Shown here piece by piece: positions 4,014 to 62,675 of a stretch of DNA of 64,000 bases. The stretch comes from a virus, in the IMG/VR virus record IMGVR_UViG_3300045125_000073, positions 24,258 through 88,257 of that record; one strand, written 5' to 3'. Positions within the stretch are counted from its first letter, which is position 1. Every line of letters begins with the position of its first letter. Position numbers and translations under genes: made by a program. The notes beneath the pieces are model-generated. The model did not search any database. It was not told the origin of the DNA and saw nothing but the letters and a program-made list of their open reading frames with translations.

Positions 4014-4883
4014 TAAGTATTCTCATAATATCACTATTTTTATAAAAGTCAACTAATTTATGTATAATAGTTTCAACAGAAAATTTATTTGTATAACCAT
4101 AAGACTTAACTTTTTTATATCCAAATAAGAATGTCTAACCTGGACTATATTGTGAAATTGTGTTGGTTGGATGTCTATTATCTTAGAACTAGAGCCCGAA
4201 TAATCTATGGCCTTTTGTATGAGATCTCCAAACATGAACGGCTCACCACTGCCTATATTAATGATCTCATTTACTGGAGCATGATCTATACAGTGTTTTA
4301 TTGCAGTACATACATCATCAACGTAAATATAATCTCTTAAAACTTTACCACCATAATAAAGTTCTACATCTTTATTTTCAGTTATTTGTTTTATAAGATA
4401 TTGTAGAGCATTTTTCTTTTTAGAGATTTTTAGATCACCTTCTCCCAATACATTAGCTAGTCTAAAAATTCTATATTTTATATTGAATGTTTGGCAAAAA
4501 GATATCAGTAATTGCTCTGCACAATATTTGGTTATAGAATAAAATCCTGTAGGATTGCATTTAGAATAGTCTTCTCTAAATGGAATTTCATTATTTTGGC
4601 CGTACACAAACCAAGAGCTAACAAAATTAAAAACTATATCTTCATTTTTAGGAATGTTTTCTAAAACATTCATTAGCACTTTTAAATTGGTGTCTATGTC
4701 TATATGTAAATTTTGATGGATATTATAATTATCAACTGTACTTATTAAGTACAAAATATTATTAGTTTTTGGTTTATAATCTGTTTTATCTAACTTTATT
4801 ATTTGGTCGGAGTATAAATTACAAAATTTAGATCCTATAAATCCAGAACCACCAAACACTGATATTTTATCAATATTGCTCAT
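4010..4883 (-). CDS. NAD-dependent epimerase/dehydratase (extended SDR)
   Basis: VFGGSGFIGS, FVSSWFVYG, catalytic YSITK, RDYIYVDDV; C-terminus probably frameshifted. Confidence 0.85.
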
Positions 4884-5720
4884 ATTTTATCCCATGGTGC
4901 TTAAACCAGTTATTTACATCTAGTAAATGATACTTATAATCTTGTTTTAATTTATTATATTCCAATTCTAATAGTTCGTAGCTTATGATGGACCAATCAT
5001 CAATTAAAATCATAGGAAAATTTTTAGCATAATATGTATTCATCGCAGATGTTTCTACTACAGGAATCGCACCAAAATATAAAGATTCCCACACTCGATG
5101 TGTGTCTTTTCCGTTTCCTGGAGGACATATTATAAATTTATGAGTCTGTAAAGCTTTATAGTAATCACCAACATCATTATAAACCGTTTTAGTATTTAAT
5201 CGGTCTGATATTATTTGTTTTATTTTTGTTCTCTTCTTCTGGATTTGTTTCTATATTAAAATTAGAATAAAACAAATCCATCTCTATTATCTGTTATAGT
5301 AAATTGTTTTAGATGTTCGGTTTCAGATGCTTCAGATCTCCAAGGAGGAACTAAACCAATAGGCAACGGTGTCATTATCTCGTCTATTGTTTCTGCATTT
5401 TGTGCATACCATTTTTTTATATTTTTAGGTACTGGTGGTATATAACTAAATTTATTGTATCCACCATGAGTAGAGACCGAATGATCATTGTCCCCTGATA
5501 TTAAAATTATATCTGTTACATCAGAATTATTTAAATAATTAAAAAGGTTAGGAAGATATGTACTCCAGCAGTATATGGTACAACCATTAAAAATGTCTTT
5601 TCTTTTATTTGATTTTATATACGGAACACCATCATTACGAACAAAAACAACATCACATCTGTCAGCATAATTTCTAGCGTTTAGTGTTGTTTGTGGTATT
5701 GTTTTTACATGAGTAAACAT
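4870..5720 (-). CDS. Exostosin (GT47)-like glycosyltransferase; frameshifted
   Basis: C-terminal THKFIICPPGNGKDTHRVWESLYFGAIPVV, the exostosin-type motif; N-terminal part is ORF 5262-5720. Confidence 0.6.
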
Positions 5721-6391
5721 TTATACAGATTCTAACAGTTTTAATTTATCTTGAAATTGTTGATAAAAACCATCATGATCGCACATATTTTTTGATCTCC
5801 TCTACCATGAAATCCAAAACAATTATTTAAGTCAAAATCACATTCTGGTATTCTAGATTCTAATGAAAATCTCATAGCAACTTCAACAGGAGCAAATTTA
5901 CAACCGTGCTGTTCTAGGGCATTTTTATAACGAAGACATATTGTTCCGTCTTCATGCCCCTGTGAATCCATATAACGACAAAGATTAATTAATTTTTTAC
6001 TTCTTAAACTGAACCCACCATTACCTACACGATTAATTTGACCATAATTTTTCCATGGCGCACCGATATAATCGTATTCTAAAAATCCATCATCCCATAA
6101 ATGAGGATTTATAACAAATCCATCATCGTGAATAGTAAGACAATACTCTGTGTCAACGTACTTATACAGTTCGTGTAACATAAATTGACTATAGGTATCG
6201 TGTGTTAGTTTTGGTATTTCTTGATAAATTATATCATCCGGCACATTAACTGGTTTGATGTGTGATAATAGCATATTTTTTGCAAAATCTATATGCTTAG
6301 TACTATATTTTATAGCTTTTAATCCTATATCAGGATTTACACCATCAATACAAATTAAAGTTATATTTTTTAATTGTATCTTATTGCTCAT
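5721..6391 (-). CDS. DUF5672-family protein (putative glycosyltransferase)
   Basis: YCLTIHDDGFVINPHLWDDGFLEYDYIGAPW and VGNGGFSLRSKKL. Confidence 0.75.
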
Positions 6392-6406
6392 AGATATTTA
6401 CCAAAA

Positions 6407-7096
6407 CTATTTTTTAAGAACATCTATTCTATTTTTATTTGGTACTCCAGTAATATGAACAAGAAATGATTCTGGTGTCCACGGTTCTGGAGGATCTGGT
6501 CTACCATCCCATATACCTCTATACAATTCTTTACTAGGTATAGAATTTAAAAATCTGTGATCTAATATTTTAATTGTATCTCTACAGGGAGTTTGGAGCA
6601 TACATTATATTAAATGTAGTTTGTTCTTCTCCCCAGTGATTGTTATCAATAACATATTTTCCAACAGAAAAAATGTAGTTATTAGTTCTTTAGTTCTGTC
6701 AGTATTTTTTAAAATAAAATTTCCAGTACTAAATGAATGTTTTCCGGGCCAATCCCAAGATACAAATAAAGAGTAGCGTTCGTTTGTGATGTCTTCTATT
6801 TTATATTCTGGGTTTGTTATTAACGCATCTCCGTCAATCCACATTACTGTATCGTAATATGATAACATATCAAAACATCTTAATGCACGTAGAATTCCTA
6901 GATTTGTTGATTTAAATATGTTGTTTCTATCTTCTCCCAAAGATTTTAAACATAATAAATCATACCCATGTTTTTTTGCGTATCTTTGTTGAGACGGATA
7001 CGTTAAATCGTGTACTTCTTCATAAGTATTATCTAAATCAGAAGAAGTTTTTAAACAATCTGTAGTACCAGTTATTAGTAGAATTTTATTTTTCAT
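6407..7096 (-). CDS. GT34/MNN10-like glycosyltransferase; frameshifted
   Basis: YAKKHGYDL, DxD-type WIDGDALITN, FSTGNFILKN; C-terminal FLVHITG. Confidence 0.65.
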
Positions 7097-8412
7097 TTTT
7101 TATTTTTAAAAAAATCATCGGTTATTTGTTCGATATAATCTAGTTGCTCTCCAGTGATTACTGGACTAGTTCCTAAAAAGAAAGTATCTGTTGTTACTTT
7201 TCTAGCATTAGGATACTTTGTAATGACTTCTTGTGGGTTCATCATTCCAGAATACGCTGGTTGTAACATGATGTTGCCAGCAAAGTATGGTCTTGTTTGA
7301 ATCTTATTGCTTTCAAAATGATCCACAATATCTTTTCGTTTAAAAGGAGCTCCGTCTTTAATAGTTATTGCAAAAGCAAACCAAGCTGGTTCTGCGCCTT
7401 CTGTTGCCTTTGGAAGTATTAGATAGTTTTCATATTTAGAGAATATCTGTGTAAGGCGTGCATGATTGGCGTTACGCATCTCAATAATCTTTGGTAGCTT
7501 CTTTATTTGTGCAAGCCCCATAGCTGCTTGCGAATCTGTTGGCTTAAGATTATAACCAATTTCATCGTACACATACTTGTGATCAAAGATCTCGTCAGGC
7601 AAAGCTGGAAGCCAGTTAGAAAAACGTGTCTTACACATACCATTCTTCAAAAGATTAGCTTTTTGACCAACACAATAGCAGCCACGGCCCCATTCTCTAA
7701 AACTTCGCACTACCTTTTCTTGATGCGGAGTATTACATGCTATAAAACCACCTTCGCCCATGGTAATATGGTGAGCAGGATAAAATGAAAAACTAGCAAA
7801 TTCTCCAAAACTTCCTAATGGTTTTCCTTTATAAGTAGAACCCAAAGCATCACAACAATCTTCTAGAAGAATAAGGCCGTATTCATTAATGATTTCCATT
7901 AAACGATCCATGTTTGGAGGATTGCCTAATACGTGAGCGAAGGTAATAACTTTACAACCTTCTTTAGCTCGCTGTTCTACTTGATCTAGATTAAGATTTA
8001 GTGTATCTAGATCTATATCAACAAATACCGGCTCAAATCCCACCTGAAAAATAGGATTAATAGTTGTTGGAAATCCTGCGATAGGAGTAATTACCTTTGT
8101 GCCTTTAGGAAAATTAGTAAGGCGTTTAGATGTAAGAGCTGACATCATTAGCAGATTTGAGCTACTACCACTATTAGTCAGAATACCAAAATTTTTATCA
8201 ACTAAACGAGGAAAGATCTGTTCAAAACGGATGCCGTTTTCTCCAAGAACTAACCACCCCTCTAGTATAGTTTTAATAGATTCGGTATACTCTTCGGTAT
8301 CAAAATACGGTCCAGCGTATTGAACCCAATCTTTACCAGCCACCCATTTTTTTGCTGCGTGTTTTTCGTTTATAAATTGTTCTACTTGTTTTAAAATATT
8401 TTCCATACTCAT
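7093..8412 (-). CDS. rfbH: NDP-4-keto-6-deoxyglucose 3-dehydrase (E1, RfbH/DdhC family)
   Basis: Intact 439 aa. SFYPAHHITMGEGG has His in place of the aminotransferase Lys; WGRGCYC...C Cys cluster; DHKYVYDEIGYNLK. Confidence 0.93.
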   Translation of the reverse strand: MSMENILKQVEQFINEKHAAKKWVAGKDWVQYAGPYFDTEEYTESIKTILEGWLVLGENGIRFEQIFPRLVDKNFGILTNSGSSSNLLMMSALTSKRLTNFPKGTKVITPIAGFPTTINPIFQVGFEPVFVDIDLDTLNLNLDQVEQRAKEGCKVITFAHVLGNPPNMDRLMEIINEYGLILLEDCCDALGSTYKGKPLGSFGEFASFSFYPAHHITMGEGGFIACNTPHQEKVVRSFREWGRGCYCVGQKANLLKNGMCKTRFSNWLPALPDEIFDHKYVYDEIGYNLKPTDSQAAMGLAQIKKLPKIIEMRNANHARLTQIFSKYENYLILPKATEGAEPAWFAFAITIKDGAPFKRKDIVDHFESNKIQTRPYFAGNIMLQPAYSGMMNPQEVITKYPNARKVTTDTFFLGTSPVITGEQLDYIEQITDDFFKNKK

Positions 8413-8413
8413 A

Positions 8414-9247
8414 TTAATGAATTCCCATTCCCCAATCGTTTAGATTGGGAATATTATATTCTTTAATCATTTGTTTAATATACTGATACTTATAATTATC
8501 ACTGATATTTTGCCGACTGTAAATTAAAGGATCTACTTTTAAAGGAAAAGAAATTTCTGCGTATTCCCAATTAAAATTATTTACAGACGCATCATAAGCA
8601 GAAGCTGAAACAGTTTCTGCATTAAATTTTATTCGATTTACATAGTCTGTAATTTTCCAATAATATTGTTTTATAGCTACTGCTTTTTTATCTAACCATT
8701 GAAGATGTGCTATAAAAAGATTTGGTGCTTGAATTACCGCTTGATTTTTTGGAACTGGTAGATGTTCAGAGTGCATCTGGGCAGATTTAAAAGATATCTT
8801 ATTTTCATAAGAACCAATTCTATCTTTTAGATTATGTCTCCATGGACCGTCTATTCTTATTTTATTTTTATCTGTGTATTGGATCCATTGTGCATGGATT
8901 AATGTATCTTTGTTTTGCTCTAGAATTGACTCTAATTGATCTTTGTTTAAGTTTCCATCTAGATATTCATCCGCATCTAAACAGATAATATGACCAGAAT
9001 GTTTAAAAGCTTCATCAAATAATCTTTGTCGTATATTTGATTCTACAGATAATTCGTTTTGATTTTTATTTGTTCTAAGAACATTTAAAATATTATATTT
9101 TTCTTTATTCTCTAATAAAAATTCATAGGTTCCATCTGTGGAGTCATCATCCATAAAAATAAAACCATCAGCATATGTTTGCCAATGTGGAATCATTTCT
9201 TTTAAAAGAAATAATTCATTTTTAATTAAAGTAATTTGAATGATCAT
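8414..9247 (-). CDS. GT2-like glycosyltransferase
   Basis: Intact 277 aa; IKNELFLLKE, FMDDDSTDGT, CLDADE (GT-A DxD). Confidence 0.7.
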   Translation of the reverse strand: MIIQITLIKNELFLLKEMIPHWQTYADGFIFMDDDSTDGTYEFLLENKEKYNILNVLRTNKNQNELSVESNIRQRLFDEAFKHSGHIICLDADEYLDGNLNKDQLESILEQNKDTLIHAQWIQYTDKNKIRIDGPWRHNLKDRIGSYENKISFKSAQMHSEHLPVPKNQAVIQAPNLFIAHLQWLDKKAVAIKQYYWKITDYVNRIKFNAETVSASAYDASVNNFNWEYAEISFPLKVDPLIYSRQNISDNYKYQYIKQMIKEYNIPNLNDWGMGIH

Positions 9248-9251
9248 AATA

Positions 9252-10084
9252 TTAACAGCTCAGTATTCTATTTAGGAGAGGTTCGCAATATTTTTTAGCT
9301 GTTTCAAAATTAAAATTAATTTTTTCTATATTAGAATAATAATAGTCTTCAGTATAATTTGTTATAAGAATGTTCTCTGGATTTATCCAGTAACTGGTAT
9401 CAAAATATTCTGATACGTTCGGACAACCCCAATATATGGGAATTGTTTTTGTTATTAAACAATCTATTAATTTTTCTGTAAAATAATTAGGTTCGTTTGA
9501 ACTTTCGATAACTACAGAATACATCGAATTAAAAGATGTATTTTGTTATCATTTGGAAGTGTTGGTGTGTTTGGTATAGGAAATCGTGTGGACGAATAAA
9601 AGTTTAATTTTGTTTTAATTTTGTTTTTATTATTCCAAATAGTATGGCGGATGTTGTATCCTGGTTTCCCTGTCAGGGATCCGCACACCATACTAATACT
9701 ATTTTCTTTTACAAGCTTACCTAAATCTTCAGTAAATGTTCCAATAGAGTCTGGGTGATGTGATGATTTATTTAACCATGTGGTTCCGTATGGCTGTTTT
9801 ACCGCATGAGAACACTTCTCTAAAATTTTAGGATTAGAAGTTATAATTTTAGTGTAATAGTGCTGATTAGTAATAACATGATCTGCTTGCTCTACCCAAG
9901 CAGATGTTGTTGGTTCATTAATATTAACGAATATTTTATGTTTTGCATCAGAATAAAATTGTACCGGTCCCCCTGGTCTAGAATTTTTACCAAATCTGGT
10001 AAAATGAATTTCATATGATTCTGGCAGATCAGGTAAAGACTCTGGTGATATAAGATAATCAGCGTTAAGAACAAGCGGTTTCAT
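9252..10084 (-). CDS. GT10 (fucosyltransferase)-like protein; frameshifted
   Basis: C-terminal YSVVIESSNEPNYFTEKLIDCLITKTIPIYWGCPN matches the GT10 signature. Confidence 0.7.
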
Positions 10085-10944
10085 TTTATAATTTTATCAA
10101 ATAAATATTCGTCTGCTAGTTTTAGATCCTTAACAGCATTAAAATTATTTGTGATTGCTGTTAATTTTGAATCGTATACTTGTTTTGATAAACTTTGTAA
10201 TATCTCAGACTCTTTATTTTGTTCTAAAAATATTATACCATCTGGATCAAAAAAGTCAAAAATCTTTTTTGTTCCACAATAAACTGGAACTGTGCCTGTT
10301 GCAAAACAGTCTGTTATTTTTTCTGTCCAGTACGAATCGTAAATACCATTTTCAATAACTATACTAAACATGTACTCTTTGATACCATTTAATTTAGTAT
10401 TCCATGGATTTCTTGGATCTGTTACTGTTCTCTGAGTACCGTGTGCTCCACCAAATACATCTAGATCAGCATCCAAAGCAAGTCTAGCAATCTGATGTCT
10501 GTATACATGTCCTTCTGTTGCTAATTTAGGAGAACAAAACATAGAACATAATTTTGTTTTTTCGTATATTGCCCAGTCTTGTTTTGGAACCCACGGGTAA
10601 TTACTACCACTTGGGCAAAATATAAAATTAGAATTTAATTCTAATAACGATTGGTCGCAAGTAAAAATTTTATTATAATAATTATTAAATAGTATTTTAT
10701 GATTGTGGATTAAAAAATTATAAACATCTGGTACTATGAATCGAGACTCACAAACCCACCCGTATCTTTTTTCTTTAGGAATAGAAAGATCTGGTTGATA
10801 CATCATACCACGATCTATGTGTACATCCCAATCTCCCTTTTCTGAAGACCAAGTAAAATTTGTTGGGGTTATATTTGAACAGGACGAATAGTTTGTGTCA
10901 AAAGGAGCACCTATTGCTCTTACTTTGTGCCCGGGCTTTGCCAT
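10081..10944 (-). CDS. GT10 (fucosyltransferase)-like protein
   Basis: Intact 287 aa; YMFSIVIENGIYDSYWTEKITDCFATGTVPVYCG. Confidence 0.75.
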   Translation of the reverse strand: MAKPGHKVRAIGAPFDTNYSSCSNITPTNFTWSSEKGDWDVHIDRGMMYQPDLSIPKEKRYGWVCESRFIVPDVYNFLIHNHKILFNNYYNKIFTCDQSLLELNSNFIFCPSGSNYPWVPKQDWAIYEKTKLCSMFCSPKLATEGHVYRHQIARLALDADLDVFGGAHGTQRTVTDPRNPWNTKLNGIKEYMFSIVIENGIYDSYWTEKITDCFATGTVPVYCGTKKIFDFFDPDGIIFLEQNKESEILQSLSKQVYDSKLTAITNNFNAVKDLKLADEYLFDKIIK

Positions 10945-20876: not shown

Positions 20877-22379
20877 TGGACTCCTTTGGTAACTGAATAG
20901 ACACAATCTTGTAAGGAAAGCCTTCATTAGTATATATTTTAAACGTGCATCTAAATGATGCATACCGTGGTTTACATGTAGCTTTTATAACATAAGATCA
21001 TCTGCAATATCAAACAATTTCATGTGTTGTTTTGTTTCACTTTTACGTAAACCTCTGACCTATTGATTGTAAAACTCGAACTACAGATTTAGATGGAGAC
21101 GCAAAAACAATGTTGTGAATGTTCTTAATATTTATGCCTGTGCTACATGTACCGTACGAAGCTAATAAGAACCGAATCAGATCCTTTATCAACAGCTTTT
21201 CGTATTTGTTCACGCGACTCTACTTCCGTTTCTCCGTGAATGAAATACACAGGTTTGTCTAGTTCTGATCTGTAACAGTTCATGAAGTGGTTTACCTTGC
21301 AGTTCTACAAAGTTGAACAGAACTAGTGTATTACCTGGTAATTTTTTACATAGATTTTTTAATAAATTCGTTTACGTCGATGGATTACTTACAACCCAAC
21401 GAATCTCGTCCACATACATCATTTTTTTGGTTGTTTGAATGTCTTCAGGACTGTACTGAAGTTGCAAGCAGTCAATACTAATTTGCGACAACAGATCCTG
21501 ATCTATAAGTTTTTTGGTTGTTGTGGTGTGATACGTTGGACCAAACAGCCCCTCAATTACCAGTTTATGTGTTTGGGTACCGTCTAGTGTACCGGTTGTA
21601 CCTATTCTGTATTTGGTTTTTTTAGCCTTACTCATGATTGAGGTTAGTGACTTGGCTTTAAACAAGTGGCACTCGTCACCAAACACTCCAATAAAATCGT
21701 CAAAATACTCGTACGGCTGATTGTAGATGCTTTGCCACGTGGAAATAATTATTCTTTTAGTGGAGGTTTTGTCTTTTCCGGACATCACAGTATGAATATT
21801 TCGATCCGCCTTCCACGTGTCTTGTTTGGAATAATCTCGAAAATCTGCCAACATCTGGAGCCACCAGGCTGGTTGTTGGAACAATTATTAGTAGTTTTCC
21901 GGTTGGGTTTTGGTCTAGCATCCAGCGACACAGCAGGTAGATCATCATAGACTTACCGGAGCCCGTAGGAGACACTAGAAGGGCCCTAGAACGCTCTAGG
22001 GCGTGTTGTACGGCCTCTATCTGGTAGTCGTAGGGTTGGACATGCGTTTGCCTCCTGCAGATAGGGGTAAACCGTCGTATAAACTCCTTGACCTTTTCTG
22101 GATTTAGGATATCGTATGGGGCAGGAATATGCTCCCAAGTGTACCCACTGATCTTTAGCAAATTTAACTACGTGGTCTATAAGACCTGCATATATAGTCT
22201 GGGTGTACAGATTAAACAAGCGAATTTTACCGTCCCAGAGACCGTTTTTTAAATGCAGGGGTGTATTGAAAATTAGGAACAGTAAACGTAAAGTATCCGT
22301 TCAGCTCTTTGGCTAAAGAACGATCACAATCTATTTTTAAATTAACCGCATCCGGTTGTGTGATCGTAATGTCAGCCAT
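20854..22379 (-). CDS. uvsW: RNA-DNA/DNA-DNA helicase UvsW; frameshifted
   Basis: ALLVSPTGSGKS, LIIVPTTSLV, FGDECHLFKAKSL, IGTTGTLDG, LVIEGLFGP. Confidence 0.95.
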
Positions 22380-44700: not shown

Positions 44701-44896
44701 AACTAAAAGTTATTATATTTGTTTATGGTTCTGGTGATTTACAATGTAATATAGGCTCCAGTTGATACCTGTGCCTTCCTGTATTACCCGTTCCCTGGGG
44801 GCCTGTAGGGCCTCTGGGGCCTGTGAGGTCCTTGAGGTCCTGTTAAACCAGTCAGTTTGTACTGATTATTGTACTGTTTCCAATAATAGAAGGCAT
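38778..44896 (-). CDS. Giant (~2000 aa if single) Cys-rich repeat virion/fibre protein; heavily frameshifted, may be more than one gene
   Basis: Start MPSLIIGNS with a TATAAATA promoter; GPQGPTG repeats; GSCC/RSCC/GACC/GKCC motifs; no obvious internal RBS-ATG seen. Confidence 0.45.
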
Positions 44897-47171: not shown

Positions 47172-49028
47172 TTAGCTCCTAATATTTTACTTTTTCCTGG
47201 AATATAACGAACCAACAACAATACCACCACGCATATCTTAGCTCCAGGATATACAGGTACTACCATCTATAAATCCAGAACATGTGTTTGTTAGTTGCAC
47301 GACATAATGTTCACATAATTTAGATTTTCCTAAATAGTATCCATTATTAGTGAAACAATCAGAATATGACTGTTCTGAGGCACACTCCATTCTGACAGCA
47401 CGGCCCAGTACCAGAAGAACATATTGCAGAACCAAAGGCATCCATAACAAGAAACAGATCTACCTTGGAAAATTCCTCCTATATTATCACATTCTGTTCT
47501 GGAAATGTATTCACATCCTCCTCTTCCGTTACAACATGCTCCGATATCATTAAACAACGACTCGCAATCTACTGACTGAGATGATGTATAGTTACCAGCA
47601 AATTTTACATTTTGATCTGTTAGAGACAAACACTCAGTGCAAGTTAAGTTGATCCGATAAAATATTAGTTGTTTTAATACCATTAGAAATAGTTTGTCTA
47701 CAACAAACACCGGGTTTATTACAAATAAAATCGTAAGTTGCACCACATGTCGTTCCCGCACCATGGAAAAATCCTGAACAAGAATTTTCTGTTATAGTTT
47801 CACATGTTCCATCGTCTTTACAACAAGCACCAACAGGTTCTGATGATACCACCAGCTAATTGAGAAATAGGAGGACTAGTAAATATGTCAACATCTACAT
47901 CCGTATTTCTATTATTTGTGGCTTTTTCTGTGCAATTATTAGACCAAAGATATTGTTCTGTGCATTTTGTTGGACCCGCATAATCCACTTAGTGTAGCAT
48001 ACCAAACACCGTTAACACCAAAAAAGTAATTCTAAGTTCGCAAGGAACTCCATCAACAGAAAAACAAGGATAGACGTTTCGAGTCCATTTGATATTAGAA
48101 CTAAATCGATCAAACAGTCCTACAGGAGGATTTACTGCATTTTTTATTATCAGATCAAACGAATAAGCTCTGTTATCTATTGGTGGAGATTTTACTGTTA
48201 TTTTACTTTTGTTGTTTGAAAAATCTAAAACATACACTTTAGATTTTGAACCAAACATTAATTCATTATGTTCTTCAACAAAGGGTCTATAGCACAAGTA
48301 ATACCACAAGCCGCACAAGAAGCATCTCCTGTTACTTGTTGACAATATAAACCTGCAAAGTTGCACCGGTATATCCACCACCACGAACTCGTTCAAAAAC
48401 ATTTGCATTATTAAATACCACACCTGTTATGGAGACATCTGAGTCATTGTTTGCAGTAACACCAGATGTATTGGAAATTCTTTCTATAACTTTATTACCA
48501 GTAAATTTTAAAAAGTTTACTGTGTTTATATTTGTTGATACTGTCAATCCCGATGACAGTATTAAATTTAAATTTTTATAAAAAGTTGTAGACGATCCAA
48601 ACAATGGTTAGAACAGGATAAGGCTCATTTATATCTTCTTGTAAAAATTTAGAATTGCTATTATTTAATAAGCTATAGGTCTTATTTAAGTCTAGTTTGA
48701 TATGAAACTTCATAAAAATGGGTTCAATTCCATAACTTACCCGTATATAAGAGATATACCAGTTCCCAGATTTAAAAATCTGCAAAATATTGAGTAGGTC
48801 CAGTGGTTCCGTATATCTTTGTGCTGGTACCGTAAGTTGCTCCGTTTGAAAAATACGTAATAAGCGAACGATCTACTAAAGAAATACCAATAATGCTAGG
48901 ACCAGTATTTCCTGTGTTTCCAGATCCTGTAGGACCTGTAGGCCTTTGGGGCCTGTGGGCCCGGTTGGACCTGTTACAGAAAAAGCACCAGATAATTTGG
49001 TTACTGAACTAGATCCTATAATTCTCAT
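47170..49028 (-). CDS. Fibre-like protein with GPTG motifs and several GACC Cys-rich repeats; frameshifted
   Basis: MRIIGSSS...GPTGPTG; VGACCKDDGTC, PGVCC, IGACCNGRGGC, TGPCCQ. Confidence 0.55.
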
Positions 49029-56538: not shown

Positions 56539-58291
56539 TTATACTATTTTACCTACACTAGAAACGGAGGGTATATATTCGTCTTTCATTATTATATTAT
56601 TACTGTTTTCTACTGTTCCTGCCACTCGTATGTTTGTAGATTCTGGTAGAACTCCTGAATTTATATAAACAATACCTTTAGCATAATCTACAGTTCCTAA
56701 TTTAGGAATGGATGTAATTCTAAGTCCTGCGCTATTAATAGCAACCAATTCTCCTATTGTAGCAGAAGGAAACGGTAAAAAGTCACTTAAAGAAATTGTT
56801 GTTCCATTATAATTAAATATGCTAGAACTTATAATTCTTCCCATGGCACCCGTTGTAACTATTATTGCTGGTCGTTTTAATGTGTTTTTAAAGTACAAAT
56901 ATTTTTGACTGTCAGAACCAAACACATCTAATATTACATTTGCAGAAATAATATCAAATGAAGTTATATCCGGATAAGTTTGAAACAATACGTCTCTTAT
57001 ACTGGTAGAATTCACATTATTATTAAATGCTAAATTTTGATTGTATATGTTGTTTATACTAGTTTGTATTGAAGACAGCTGATTAGAAACAATCCCTCTA
57101 ACATTAAAATTTAATGTCACATTTACTATTTGTGATTTGATGTATTCTGGTATAACAGTAACAATACTTTTGTCCTTTAAAAAATTTACATTTTTTGTTA
57201 CAGTTGGGATTTGTTGAGGTTAAATTTGGTATCAGCATACGATATAAAACACTCTTCCATAAGAGGCAGGGTCTGCTTCATCTCCACCCCAAATATTAAT
57301 TTTGTTCTTTCTATTAATTCCAGCAGGGCAATAGATTGGAAGATAATAATAAACCGTAATAATCGTCTTTAGTTATTGCTCTATCATTAGCTGCCAATAA
57401 TTTTGGAGCAAAAAACTTTACCAGATCTAAATCTGGGCCATCTGTTCCGTTATTAGATTGTGTGTTTGATAAAACTGATAAACTGGAATTAGAAAAAGAA
57501 GATACACCATTAGAAACGGTTCCAGACGGAACCAAATAAGATACTGTGACAACATCGGTTGGTTCTATATTTTTTCCAAATGATGACTGATAATCATTTA
57601 TAGTTCTTTTACCAAATATTAAATAAAATCCGTTTGAAAGACGGTCTATAAAATAAACCTTTCCTTCGGGATCAGAGGACGGGTTGTATGTATTGTATCT
57701 GTGTCCAAACTTCTCCGTTTACTTTTACTGTTAAGTGTTGATATGTCAATATTTAGTGCTTGCTAAAAATGCTTTCTGGTTTACGGTCTCTACCGAAACT
57801 GGCAGATCTATTTACAACCGAAGTTGCTTCGTAATACAATGTTATATTTTGAGAAGTTCCAGTAGTTAATGTAATACTTTACGGTACAGTAATATTTGTA
57901 TACTACATTGTTTGGGCTGATACCTGAGAAAATAATCTGTATATGCGTTAAACGTGAATGGACGAGGACACTCCAGTTTTAGTGGCTGCCGGTCAATTTC
58001 AGCTTTTAGAGCTTGTTTTACTAGGAACCAACATATCCTAATGGTTTTACTAAGTGAAACTATATTTCTTTCTAATTGTAGCGGTATCCAAATAATGCTT
58101 CATTTGCTACCATGTTCGCTGTAATACGAATAATATAGGGTGTTATAAGCAAACACGTCCAACAGAGAGTTTAAGGCAGTACCATTGAAATCGTAACCAG
58201 AAAATTCTGATTTAGTTTGCAGATACGTCTTTAAAGAATTTTTAATACTTTGAAAATCTAATGATGATATGTTTATTTGTGGTGTTGACAT
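56539..58291 (-). CDS. gp6: Baseplate wedge subunit; frameshifted
   Basis: SSLDFQSIKNSLKTYLQ...YDFNGTALNSLLDVFAYNTLY, VKFFAPKLLAANDRAITKDDY, WGGDEADPASYGRVF. Confidence 0.93.
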
Positions 58292-58295
58292 TACT

Positions 58296-58688
58296 TATCG
58301 CTACCTATTTTTATGGTTAATGTCTCGTATATGTTCTGGATCTGAGACTAAAGAATACGAAACTTTAATTTCCCAGGATGACATTTGCATCCATGTCCTT
58401 AATAATATCTATATTTTCTATAATTTGTTCTGGGTTCATTTAAACTGATAATGACGCAGCCATATCTGGTTTTTAATAGTTGCTAGATCGCAACTCTAGA
58501 CGGGCTGTTCGTACACTAAATTGTACGCGTTTCCACCAAAATTATAATCAAACGGCCTTTCTCCTTTTGTTGTTAGCAGTATATTTTTTATATGATTGGC
58601 TAATAGCGTTAAGATCGTATTTTAAATTAACATCGTTAGTTAACTCATTTTTTGTAAAATTCAAGTCTATATCTGTGTATTTTGCCAT
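58296..58688 (-). CDS. gp25: Baseplate wedge subunit; frameshifted
   Basis: MAKYTDIDLNFTKNELTNDV...LLTTKGERPFDYNFGGN; directly upstream of gp6. Confidence 0.88.
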
Positions 58689-58699
58689 ATTAGTCCTAC

Positions 58700-61600
58700 T
58701 CCGTCTCGCATTAAATACAGATACATGGTGTGTTTTTGTGGTGTAAATATCCTTTGTACTTTATAAACCATCCATCTTCCATCAAAATTGGGCGCATCTA
58801 TAGTAATTATTTTACCAGGACTTACTCCAAAATCTCCGTTAACTAATATTTTAACTGCGTTGAGCTTGCATTAATGCCATTTGGGCTCTTCTTCGTATAG
58901 GAGTTTCTTCGGGTGTATTCCAGAATGTTGCAGAAGTTTTAGAATACTCTTTTATAATATTTAAAGTTTGAATTTACAAGTTCTGTATCTGGGCATAACG
59001 AAACTTGTGTCTCAACAGAACTGGTGTCTAATGTTGTGGGATACGCACTTCCTGTGTCACCACCTGTGGCACCAAATATTTTTCTTTTGTCGTAATCAAA
59101 AAATGATTTTCCGTTAGTGCCTTGGCCTTCCGGGCGGTGGCGGTGGTGGTGGCGGTGATGCTTCTGTTAAAAAGGTTTGTAATTGGGGTAATTCGCCTAA
59201 TTGGGTATCTATAGTATTTCTTTGATTTGATCCTACGAGAGGATTAAAAGGACCTGGACACGTATGAAATGCTCTCCGACCATAAATGTTGTCAGTATAA
59301 TTAGCATTACATTTAGCACACCCAGTCCAGCTATATCCAATAGTATCACATTCCTCTTGTGTTGCTTGTATGCATTTAGAGTTCACAATCAGGATCAATT
59401 AAGGTTGCAATCGCATAATAACAGCAAGCACCAGAAGTGGCGCATAAAAGGATTTGATCCCAACCGGCCTTGTGCATATCTGGTCACTACAACTTACTTT
59501 TTCACACAATGCACAGTGTGTCCAACGACCTTGGTAAAGAGTATTACATTCTCCAAGTGTTGTCTGAGTACACTTACCGCAACCAGGTTCCGCAGCACGC
59601 ACCATAATCTTCTCCAGTTGTTTCATTTCTCCCTGCTGTGGACAAGTAGGGGGGAACGCGGACCTACCGCCACCGCCACCGCCACCACCGCCACCGGGCG
59701 GTGATGGTGGAATTACAACACCGCCGCCTCCACCACCGCCGCCACCGCCGCCACCACCACCACCATCACTACAGGGATTAGGAGAACATACACGGCATTT
59801 TGTCCACTTTCCTCCCAGCAGAAGAACAACCAATTTCTGACAGTGTTTGGCAGCAGCTTCCATCTGTTAAACAACACGATCCCCAGTGGAATTCCAGCAA
59901 ATTCATATCCAGCATCACAGGGGGAACAGTTGGAGGCACTGGAGGAGTCCTGGGAGGTCCTGGAGGAGGTAGTTGGTTGGAGGAGTAGTGGTTGGAGGAG
60001 TAGTGGTTGGAGGAGTAGTGGTTGGAGGAGTAGTGGTTGGAGGAGTAGTGGTTGGAGGAGTAGTGGTTGGAGGAGTAGTGGTTGGGGGTCCTTCACAGTG
60101 GTAATCCACCCTGCCGTACTTTTGAACCGGTTTTGTGTTTAAGCCTATGGAGTATCAGAATCGTACTCTTTCTACACAGTTATAAACAGTTTGAATATCC
60201 GAATAGATCAATGCCAAACCAACTGGTATCCTAAATGTATGCACGAATTAAGATCACATTCTTTTGCCGGAAGTCATATTTTTGAAAGGCTCCTGCCAGT
60301 TGCGCGTCTGTCGGTGGTGTATTGGGATATCTGGTTTTTAGTGGAGCTGGACTGAGACGGGCAATTACAATACGGATTGTCTGCAGGGCATCCAAGATTA
60401 GAAACAGGTCCGTAAGGACTCATGCACTCACTACCTTTACCAGGTTCGTAAGTGTTATGGTTTTTTTGGAAACCGGGTAAAAAAATTCATCAAGTGGTGT
60501 TAGGTAGATACGACATTTTGATTATTTATTTTATTTGTACTGCGTCCCACAAGTAGCATAAACCGTCATGATCATTTTCCACATCAAAAACGAACACTCA
60601 TTGTGGTGTGTATGGTCTTGTTTCTGTTGCTAACGTTTTTCCAATAATTGCAGTTAATGCTTGTTTGGGTATTTTGAACATCTGCACTACTCTGCCACCG
60701 TGATAAAGCTCTGGAGCACCGAGTACTAGCATAGCGGTTCCATCATCTGCTCCAATTCGGAGAACAGGTTTTTTAGTAGTTATTCTGTATTTTCCTACAG
60801 GCATTAAAGAAAACTGTTTTGGATATGAAACGTACTCTTTACGTGTTTCTGCATCGTCTGGCATTATTCCGTGAATGTTAGAAATGCCGGGTCCTTTTAT
60901 TGTTGTATTGGTGCTGAAAGAGAATTTCACTTCAAATTTAGAAGGAACTGCTGAATTTAAAATTTCGTTTAAATTATATGCTCTACTATCCGGACCGATA
61001 TCACTCAGATTTGCTACCTCTTGCTGCACCAGGCGGAATTGCAAAAACAAACGGGAATGTATTATCTTCAAACTCTATAATTTCTCGATTTTCTAATACA
61101 CTCTGAACATCCGCTCTGAGCCAAAATTCTACTTCTACCCATTCGTATGCGTATATACCACCAGAATCTTTTTCTATAAAAGCAGAAGCACGTTACCAGA
61201 ACTTAAAGTTTGGCCTTCGCTTCCGTATATTTTTTCTGCTTGTGTAAGAACTGCGAAGAATGTTTCCGGAACTTCTCGTATACAACACATCTTATTCTTA
61301 AACGCATCGTGTTTTGCACGTTCTCTCTTTTAGTTCTAAATATTCTTGTTTTGATTTTAGTAATTCGGATCCCACTTGATTTATTGTAAATTTTGTACAA
61401 CCACGAACCTGGTAATTCAGAAATCAAACTAGGCTCTCCAATAGTTACTTTCATTTCCTTTCTGGTTGTTTTTATACCTAAACTAGTTTCTGTTAAATCG
61501 TTAGATGTATTTGTTAATATTATCGGCATAACTCCACCATGGTGTATTGGAATTATACGGATGGGCAAAATAACCGTAGTTAGTATCAGACATTCGTAGT

Positions 61601-62675
61601 GTTCCAGTATTTTCTGGACTAAACGTTCCTATAGGATTACAGCTATTCCTAAACCAGATATATTATTTCTGTACTGACCCACTACACGCCGTTTTATCAG
61701 TTCTGCATTAGTGTCTAAAGAATTTTGATAAACAGAAGACCAATCTGGTTTAACCCTAATATATTCTCAAAGAATGCGCCAGAACTTATAAGTTTAGCGG
61801 GACTTACGTGTTTATAACTTCAAAGGACGCTATGGCATTGGTGTCTAATTCGTTTTGTTGATATTGCATAAGTGAATAGCAACAGCAGATTGTTGCGCCA
61901 TTTGCTGACTGATTTAGAATTTCCATCCCGGTAAGATCTTGCCAAAATAAAAAATCCACATGACCAAGGTGCATCTTCGTCTACACGCGTATTCACTCAC
62001 GTAATTCATTATTTAGATGTATTGGTGGGATTGTTTCCTAATCTTATGAAAACGGATAAAGATGCATGGATCGTTGTTAAAGCCATATAAGAATTTGTAT
62101 CGTTAAGTCTGCAGCAAGATATAATCTAGAACCAATACACCAGAATAATTTGCTAAAGGTATGAACAAAGCTTTCATAAGCCGGCATCTCCTGCAGGAGC
62201 TAAAGGAGAAGAATCCACTATTTGGTTCAATTCCAAATCCAGAAATAAGTCCTATAAAATCGTTATACGGAGAATAATTAAAATTATCGTAAACAAATAA
62301 TTTACTACTAAAACGAACAACAGCTTTGTGTGGTCTTGCTTGGGTTCCACCAACTGAACCGCCACCTGTTGTAGTTAAACTTTGAGTAGCCAGGTCTGAT
62401 ACCCAATTGATGTCTAAAATATCAAAAAAACCAACTGAGAACCTCCTATACTAATAGTAATTCCCTTCTCATAAGTTATACTATTGATTACCTGTGCACC
62501 AGCAGTAGGATCATAGAGCGTAATGGATCCTATTATGGATTCCGAAAACATGTCTTCATCCAAACGTTAAACCTTTCTAATGTTAAAGGATCACCAGTAA
62601 AGAGCATGTAATACACTACTACCGCTTGATATGGTTAACTCTGCAAAATTTGGAAACCTATTTGAAAATCGCTCA
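58700..62675 (-). CDS. Baseplate hub-like (gp27-like) protein with inserted Cys-rich repeats and Pro/Thr/Gly linkers; frameshifted, may be split
   Basis: N-terminal EDMFSESIIGSITLYD and C-terminal VNGDFGVSPGKII...DGRWMVYKVQRIF resemble hub-type proteins; position before gp25. Confidence 0.5.
59131..59157 (-). repeat. Poly-Pro coding tract
   Basis: Imperfect (GGC/GGT)n on the plus strand; SPPPPPPPPGRP on the minus strand. Confidence 0.75.
59664..59767 (-). repeat. Two poly-Gly coding tracts flanking VVIPPSPP
   Basis: Imperfect (CCA/CCG)n on the plus strand. Confidence 0.8.
59979..60083 (-). repeat. Perfect 15-bp tandem repeat x7 encoding (PTTTP)7
   Basis: Seven identical GGAGGAGTAGTGGTT units counted on the plus strand. 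Confidence 0.95.

Follow-up and report, generated by a model that had tools for sequence, protein, structure and literature searches.

The window examined here is a 64,000 nucleotide (nt) stretch (bases 24258-88257) of a linear 88.8 kb viral record in IMG/VR (IMGVR_UViG_3300045125_000073, ~46% complete), in which the minus strand carries a period-15 tandem array inside a gene (58691-60516) whose best label is the C-terminal part of a baseplate hub that is split over two genes. Tandem Repeats Finder (TRF) places the array at 59961-60085, with a period of 15, 8.2 copies, 98% matches and a score of 232, the second-best score anywhere in the window being 60. Within it lies a perfect period-15 run of 112 nt (59974-60085, minus strand, 7.47 units), which would encode (TTTPP)n with the codons ACC ACT ACT CCT CCA; the run was delimited by a period scan, and the seven identical 15 bp units that an initial annotation of the window had reported at 59979-60083 lie inside it. 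The array ends in a 17 nt boundary unit (59961-59977, minus strand), counted by TRF as an array copy with indels, which is the consensus plus a G at 59968/9 and a T at 59973/4. These two extra letters are most likely insertion errors of the contig, and leaving them out yields 8 full units, keeps the downstream sequence in the frame of the array and gives an edited translation free of stops. A degenerate P/T-rich continuation follows on the same strand (GPPRTPPVPPTVPPV, 59916-59960), holding an ACT-CCT-CCA (TPP) word in a frame that is set by a Cys-rich module downstream, whilst the upstream flank (LNTKPVQKYGRVDYHCEGPP, 60086-60142, minus strand) lies in the TTTPP frame and includes a "VQKY" in the place of the [DN]W[KR]xY motif that is conserved in homologues before their insertion point.

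The repeat was found as its own 42-45 nt contig in all four short-read runs (X1-X4, from two studies, river or aquatic), a form that it takes because a period-15 repeat collapses to a 15-word cycle of 31-mers. The array is thus no artefact, and natural samples from two studies or more contain it. The depth of the repeat relative to its flanks was 48/10.3 (4.7×) in X1 and 20.3/4.1 (5.0×) in X3, as about seven units are expected to give, and ~1.5× in X2 and ~1.0× in X4, where the array flanks are uncovered; these ratios are taken from mixed-strain contigs, in which copy number and strain mixture are inseparable. The absence of synonymous drift between units, also claimed in the initial annotation, holds for the window contig and for the 45 nt short-read cycle, with the qualification that the whole array is seen only in the error-prone contig. 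The Pro/Thr reading of the initial annotation keeps its frame, with the correction that the coding strand is the minus strand; a plus-strand reading, which gives GWRSS or VGGVV or else a stop in every unit (LEE*), was rejected.

The source is an uncultured freshwater T4-like phage. A terminase fragment is ~72% identical to gp17 of the T4-like cyanophages Syn9, Syn10 and Syn19, its identity to contigs of uncultured viruses in IMG/VR reaches 95%, and the short-read runs that hold parts of the window come from river, freshwater and aquaculture metagenomes. The minus strand carries the long open reading frames (ORFs) and every mapped homologue. Long open frames end at ~11 kb of the window, and between ~12 and 64 kb (~36-88 kb of the whole record, G000) none exceeds ~250 codons; long frames persist in a glycan island (window 1-11 kb) and in the 36 kb with which the record begins. 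We estimate the indel load of the ~12-64 kb region at roughly 1-4 spurious indels per 100 nt, mostly single extra bases. An alignment of 1651 columns to the intact terminase gene of a relative (L003) has 19 gap letters; almost all are single bases that the window has in excess, and they shift the frame forward stepwise through an otherwise conserved protein. Over 27.6 kb aligned to two relatives, the single-base indels comprised 312 extra and 98 missing letters; the extra letters were drawn roughly equally from the four bases (A the commonest), three quarters of them (75%) without an identical neighbour base. In the 4 kb between 58000 and 62000, short-read contigs and the window disagree by an indel at 68 places, and the one short-read contig that spans 59776-59992 differs from it by 1 substitution and 11 gap letters. 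We conclude that the indels are assembly errors rather than biology, and the uneven quality along the record suggests a hybrid or unevenly covered long-read assembly. Two biological causes of the broken genes were rejected: stop-codon reassignment, as no single or double reassignment opens the frames, and programmed +1 frameshifting or quadruplet decoding, given that the extra letters have no strong base bias and no fixed context, that letters are missing too, that close relatives have intact genes and that the short-read contigs are without the extra letters. As insertion errors occur throughout ~12-64 kb, open frames there prove little, and the late-gene half of this contig is a warning that claims about frames and ORFs need independent support, with a relative as guide.

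The array-bearing gene was delimited by a family hidden Markov model (HMM), tblastn synteny, the PHROG family phrog_350 and fold matches. It has ~600 codons, compared with 274 amino acids (aa) in the relative G002, and is fragmented into many frames by the contig indels. A profile of 90 homologues of the 274 aa protein locates a conserved N-domain at 60504-60158 and a conserved C-domain at 59145-58691, each spread over three frames, and between them is an insertion of ~1 kb that contains the array. The surrounding gene order, traced by tblastn on the minus strand, is the same as in G002, where a gp53-like wedge protein (600 aa) is followed by the 728 aa and 274 aa proteins, a gp25-like wedge protein (126 aa) and a gp6-like protein (566 aa). 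In the window the gp53-like wedge gene lies upstream at 63989-62787, the N-terminal piece of the hub directly upstream at 60556-62563 and the gp25-like baseplate wedge gene directly downstream at 58505-58688, all on the minus strand, the last two identified by PHROG match and tblastn synteny. The phrog_350 profile ("tail protein") is split over the 728 aa protein (profile positions 153-276) and the 274 aa protein (277-428), the two matches having E-values of 1.6e-5 and 2.7e-6. The window has two hub genes, as does the G002 locus (L090:3915-6947, 728 + 274 aa). At the loci of G004 and G005 (L095-L097), by contrast, a single open frame of 1729 aa contains both halves in G005, and a frame of 1175 aa includes the C-terminal part in G004; family representatives of 1180-1840 aa also exist.

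Structural comparison pointed the same way at modest scores. In an AlphaFold2 model of the homologue P0019 (mean predicted local distance difference test score, pLDDT, 59.6), the confidently predicted C-domain had as its best fold matches the C-terminal domains of the pyocin R2 hub (6u5h_C, Z 5.7 over 63 residues, 2.4 Å), the Pam3 baseplate (7yfz_t, Z 5.7) and Mu gp44 (1wru_A, Z 4.4). The match is confined to the last 60 residues, with Z-scores of 4.4-5.7, and hubs or baseplate proteins fill the top ranks. Foldseek returned no match to a hub fold at an E-value of 0.001 or better, a search of the PDB by sequence returned none, and the Pfam family YQBQ was matched by 10 of 40 members at a best E-value of 0.011, under the curated cut-off. 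Synteny, phrog_350 and these fold scores together make the C-terminal piece of a split gp27/Mu gp44-like hub the best label for the array gene. It resembles the gp27, Mu gp44 and pyocin R2 hubs in its gp25 and gp6 neighbours and, at the modest scores given, in the fold matches of its C-terminal domain and the sequence match to phrog_350. It differs from them in being split in two (some relatives are fused, at 1000-1800 aa) and in its additions, which are an N-domain that contains Cys, the three Cys-rich modules and the three linkers of low complexity.

All three modules were located with a module HMM and, like the linkers between them, read on the minus strand. Module 1 (59771-59888; WGSCCLTDGSCCQTLSEIGCSSAG / GKWTKCRVCSPNPC) is spread over two frames by one extra base, and the second linker, G15-VVIPPSPP-G10 (59666-59764), is in frame with its C-terminal half. 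Module 2 (59489-59612; EDYGACCGT / CTQTTLGECNTLYQGRWTHCALCEKVSC) is followed by module 3 (59306-59435; SGACC / CIQATQEECDTIGYSWTGCAKCN), which resembles the second module of the homologue P0061, and the third linker, P8 (59132-59155), immediately precedes FFDYDKRK, a conserved motif of the C-domain. In this layout the array thus fills the first of three linker positions in the gene. The G15/G10 and P8 runs are simple-sequence DNA with periods of 3, 6, 9 and 12, and the short-read contigs of all runs stop at the G and P tracts (cuts at 59128-59166 and 59659-59775).

The same architecture recurs in homologues. P0019, P0025, P0026, P0027, P0061 and the loci L100 and L101 have one or two Cys modules after the [DN]W[KR]xY motif, of the form GACC-x-C-x-C-x-G-x-W-x-C-x2-C-x4-C and about 40 aa in size, with copies also in P0130, and these are flanked by PPPPP, GGGDGGGDGGGG, SSSLTTQTTEPTTTS and acidic or S/T-rich stretches. 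At the position of the array itself the homologues have acidic, poly-Pro or Gly/Asp linkers, and nowhere does the family vary more than in this central region (35-159 aa in these homologues). The model of P0019 predicts the Cys module with confidence (pLDDT 87-94), and the flanks, residues 115-144 and 203-266, fall below 50. Searches of Pfam, the PDB (by sequence), the ESM Atlas and Foldseek gave no usable match for the Cys module. As the neighbouring linkers show, the linker positions are free in composition. Two distant family members, P0119 (373-395) and P0144 (334-373), end in T/S/P-rich C-terminal tails (PTTTTITPTTTTTTSTTPTTTTT; SPESTSSSSSS…TPTTNTTSSQSSTSST), so that the family has Thr-rich tracts elsewhere in the protein as well.

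Several searches were made for an undamaged copy of the gene. Patterns of 30 nt and 45 nt of the repeat found no intact repeat-bearing gene in IMG/VR or the JGI metagenomes, protein searches for longer matches (with an N-terminal piece and with P0061, which begins right at a Cys module) found no intact repeat-bearing orthologue, and three window-derived peptides searched against viral and metagenome contigs found no related locus with an intact repeat gene. Among 1.84 billion representatives, HMMER matched nothing but P0135, which is a fragment of the window itself, and members of the family that are shorter. Amongst GenBank phages there was no DNA match to 58000-62000 of the window, and none of 50,697 phage records in GenBank was matched by P0019 in tblastn with an E-value of 1e-5 or better.

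The reading frame was judged from its surroundings and from homologues. The three minus-strand frames of the array read TTTPP, QPLLL and NHYSS. The NHYSS frame meets a stop 4 codons upstream of the array and the QPLLL frame two stops 17-19 codons upstream, whilst the TTTPP frame is open for 25 codons upstream (…KPVQKYGRVDYHCEGPP) and appears to end 20 codons past the array. When the two extra letters of the boundary unit are dropped, a single open reading results, KPVQKYGRVDYHCEGPP-(TTTPP)8-GPPRTPPVPPTVPPVMLDMNLLEFHWGSCCLTDGSCCQTLSEIGCSSAG, which joins the array to the degenerate GPPRTPPVPPTVPP tract and the first Cys module; written through, it runs from KPVQKYGRVDYHCEGPP by way of (TTTPP)8 and GPPRTPPVPPTVPPV to WGSCCLTDGSCC. 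The Cys-module HMM, built from the modules of homologues, matches GSCCQTLSEIGCSSA downstream and, one base-shift further, GKWTKCRVCSPNPC, and because it matches there the frame downstream of the array is fixed independently. The word ACT-CCT-CCA recurs once in this HMM-validated frame, reading TPP, and an array read in that internal phase comes out as TTTPP. Homologue linkers are T/S/P-, P- or G-rich, and none is like QPLLL or NHYSS. On these sequence grounds we hold TTTPP to be very probably the correct frame, and the initial annotation, which had written the same frame as PTTTP, is upheld here by the upstream openness, the edited in-frame join to the Cys module and the composition of homologue linkers.

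We consider it likely that the array is a product of recent in-frame tandem duplication and encodes a (TTTPP)7-8 flexible spacer which tethers the Cys-rich modules to the hub. With GPP and GPPRTPPVPPTVPPV on its flanks, (TTTPP)7-8 would form a Pro/Thr-rich, unstructured, extended spacer of ~55-60 residues, linking the conserved N-domain of the hub C-piece to the first of the three Cys-rich modules. At the roughly 0.3 nm per residue of a polyproline-II-like chain, its reach would be up to ~17 nm. The modules, inserted in the hypervariable middle of the protein, would hang from the hub at the tail tip. As the units are identical and a degenerate TPP-type sequence adjoins them, we infer that in-frame tandem duplication of the 15 nt unit (slippage or unequal exchange) was recent, with the adjacent, older TPP-type sequence as its probable source. 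The unit is five codons long, so a change in copy number would alter the length of the tether without breaking the frame.

The linker role is supported by the other low-complexity linkers that homologues carry at the same position beside a Cys module and by the modelled disorder of the equivalent segment (pLDDT < 50) in one of them, P0019; in this the suggestion of a length-variable linker in the initial annotation is supported. In kind, the TTTPP tract is an ordinary Pro/Thr interdomain linker in an unusual place, a well-known kind of sequence: its composition is dominated by P and T, it lies between folding modules recognised by the N-domain and Cys-module HMMs, and the region is variable amongst homologues. 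The Pro/Thr linkers of modular bacterial proteins, for example the cellulases of Cellulomonas fimi, are low-complexity, extended and variable in length. Like these, the tract is a tandem Pro/Thr sequence between independently folding modules, unstructured and length-variable among homologues; unlike them it belongs to a phage hub assembled in the cytoplasm and not to a secreted enzyme, it may or may not share the glycosylation known for some cellulase linkers, and it has only 7-8 units, which are identical at the DNA level. A literature search for Pro/Thr linkers in phages found nothing relevant. The array would mark a site where a hub family accepts inserted modules, and a tether whose length can change in five-codon steps may be a cheap way to alter the reach of modules located at the tail tip.

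Several points weigh against this interpretation. The TTTPP frame has a stop 25 codons upstream, in the stretch that separates the array from YSDIQTVYNC, the last anchor of the family profile, and the frame had to be deduced because no error-free copy of the gene was found and the contig carries the indel load given above. The hub label draws on synteny and weak scores (phrog_350 at 1.6e-5, YQBQ below its threshold, fold Z-scores under 6), and it is from position and composition that a spacer function is proposed. The depth ratios no more than hint at variation in copy number between populations.

One extension of the linker interpretation is that the array acts as a hypervariable length-switch, in which slippage gives the population a spectrum of tether lengths that affect host range. 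The perfect identity of the units, which implies that the expansion was recent, would fit such a switch, as would the simple-sequence DNA of all three linkers of the gene, the variability of the central region in the family and the difference in relative repeat depth among runs (4.7× and 5.0× against 1.5× and 1.0×). However, depth in contigs of mixed strains does not separate copy number from strain mixture, the lowest of these values comes from the run in which the array flanks are uncovered (X4), and a 15 nt unit cannot turn a gene on and off. We therefore treat the length-switch as a tentative possibility, on the unlikely side. The stricter category of a slipped-strand phase-variable (contingency) locus was rejected, as a unit of 15 nt, or 5 codons, varies only length and not expression.

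The initial annotation had also proposed the repeat as an acceptor for the glycosyltransferases (GTs) of the phage itself, in a "self-glycosylated virion system", and in this form the threonines of TTTPP would be O-glycosylated in the cytoplasm by soluble phage enzymes, such as a GT2 protein linked to TPR repeats; the glycans would stiffen or shield the tether, and such a role may coexist with that of a linker. Pro/Thr regions of cellulases and mucins are classical O-glycan acceptors, and the tract, with up to 24 Thr, each beside a Pro, has the composition of such linkers. In the same record is a large glycan island that encodes four or more GT-like proteins and also nucleoside diphosphate (NDP)-sugar enzymes, the core of which (4053-10944, minus strand; SDR epimerase/dehydratase, DUF5672, GT34/DUF273-like, DegT aminotransferase, GT2 and GT10-like genes by Pfam) lies ~50 kb away from the repeat. 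Just before the window, and beside structural genes, a GT2 ORF of 170 aa overlaps by 56 nt a TPR-repeat ORF of 158 aa in another frame (L099:9285-10218, equal to 21285-22218 of G000). The two are probably one gene split by an indel and, TPR domains being protein-binding, would make a candidate protein-directed glycosyltransferase.

There is precedent in mycobacteriophages that glycosylate their own virion proteins: according to PMC12363180 (citing Freeman et al. 2023), virion proteins of Che8, Corndog and Myrna are glycosylated by phage-encoded GTs. The likeness to the present phage lies in phage-encoded GTs, in structural proteins as possible acceptors and in a modification that would take place in the cytoplasm. 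The difference is that glycosylation in those phages was shown by experiment, given as "capsid glycosylation" in this secondary source (PMC12363180), whereas the window is known from sequence, and its candidate acceptor is a minor baseplate protein of a freshwater T4-like myovirus. A literature search on glycosylated cyanophage structural proteins found nothing relevant.

Set against this, the case for an acceptor draws on composition and on the GT genes in the same genome. The tract is the sole T/S/P-rich stretch of at least 10 aa on the coding strand of the 88.8 kb record, and a hub protein expected at few copies per virion is a poor match for an island of ~15-17 genes. Hydroxyl residues are absent from the poly-Pro, acidic or Gly/Asp linkers that homologues have at this position, and within the array protein the remaining two linkers consist of poly-Gly and poly-Pro. 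In the closest relatives, G001 and G002, the hub gene is present and has no Pro/Thr tract. A search for the GT2 in relatives, all of them partial contigs (35-54% complete), gave no match in G001 and G002 and a match in G003, which has no hub gene on its contig. The comparative evidence weighs mildly against a dedicated acceptor role, and we regard glycosylation of the tract as doubtful.

The description "mucin-like", used in the initial annotation, is overstated for a tract of ~40-58 residues, all the more as the protein is put together in the cytoplasm. The Pro/Thr/Ser (PTS) domains of mucins resemble it in composition only, as tandem repeats rich in Pro and Thr; they run to hundreds to thousands of residues, in long arrays of secreted or membrane proteins, whereas the window protein has no secretory pathway and is a baseplate protein encoded between the gp53-like and gp25 genes.

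A composite in which the hub tether is glycosylated in the cytoplasm by the island, with the TPR-linked GT2 as the enzyme directed at the protein, forming a stalk that carries the Cys-rich binding modules and is tuned in length by slippage, strikes us as improbable; if true, this would be a T4-like phage with a short glycosylated "mucin-like" stalk. As the only Thr-rich tract in a phage with a large glycan island, the repeat is a concrete and cheap test substrate for whether the glycan islands of aquatic T4-like phages act on virion proteins.

Least probable, and by now very improbable, is that assembly errors produced the array or made it so long and so perfect, or that it does not code, or codes in a different frame or on the other strand: the spurious indels of the contig from ~12 kb on and the apparent frameshift after the array speak for it, but as to the existence of the array it is already largely refuted by the same 45 nt cycle in four independent short-read data sets, with a depth that fits ~7 units in two of them, and it is opposed further by a unit length divisible by three, neighbouring genes all on the minus strand, stops in every unit of one plus-strand frame and beside the array in the minus-strand alternatives, and the two extra letters in one unit that account for the apparent frameshift.

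Two further repeat-bearing regions were observed in the late genes. The gp53-like wedge gene has a long insertion with repeats that are RCC1-like by eye (…GQLNYPSG…HSAAID…). In the fibre gene block, period-9 tandem repeats (GGGCCTGTA / CCTGTAGGA) occur at 44795-44843 and 48926-48974, and the minus strand of these could encode collagen-like G-x-y triplets.

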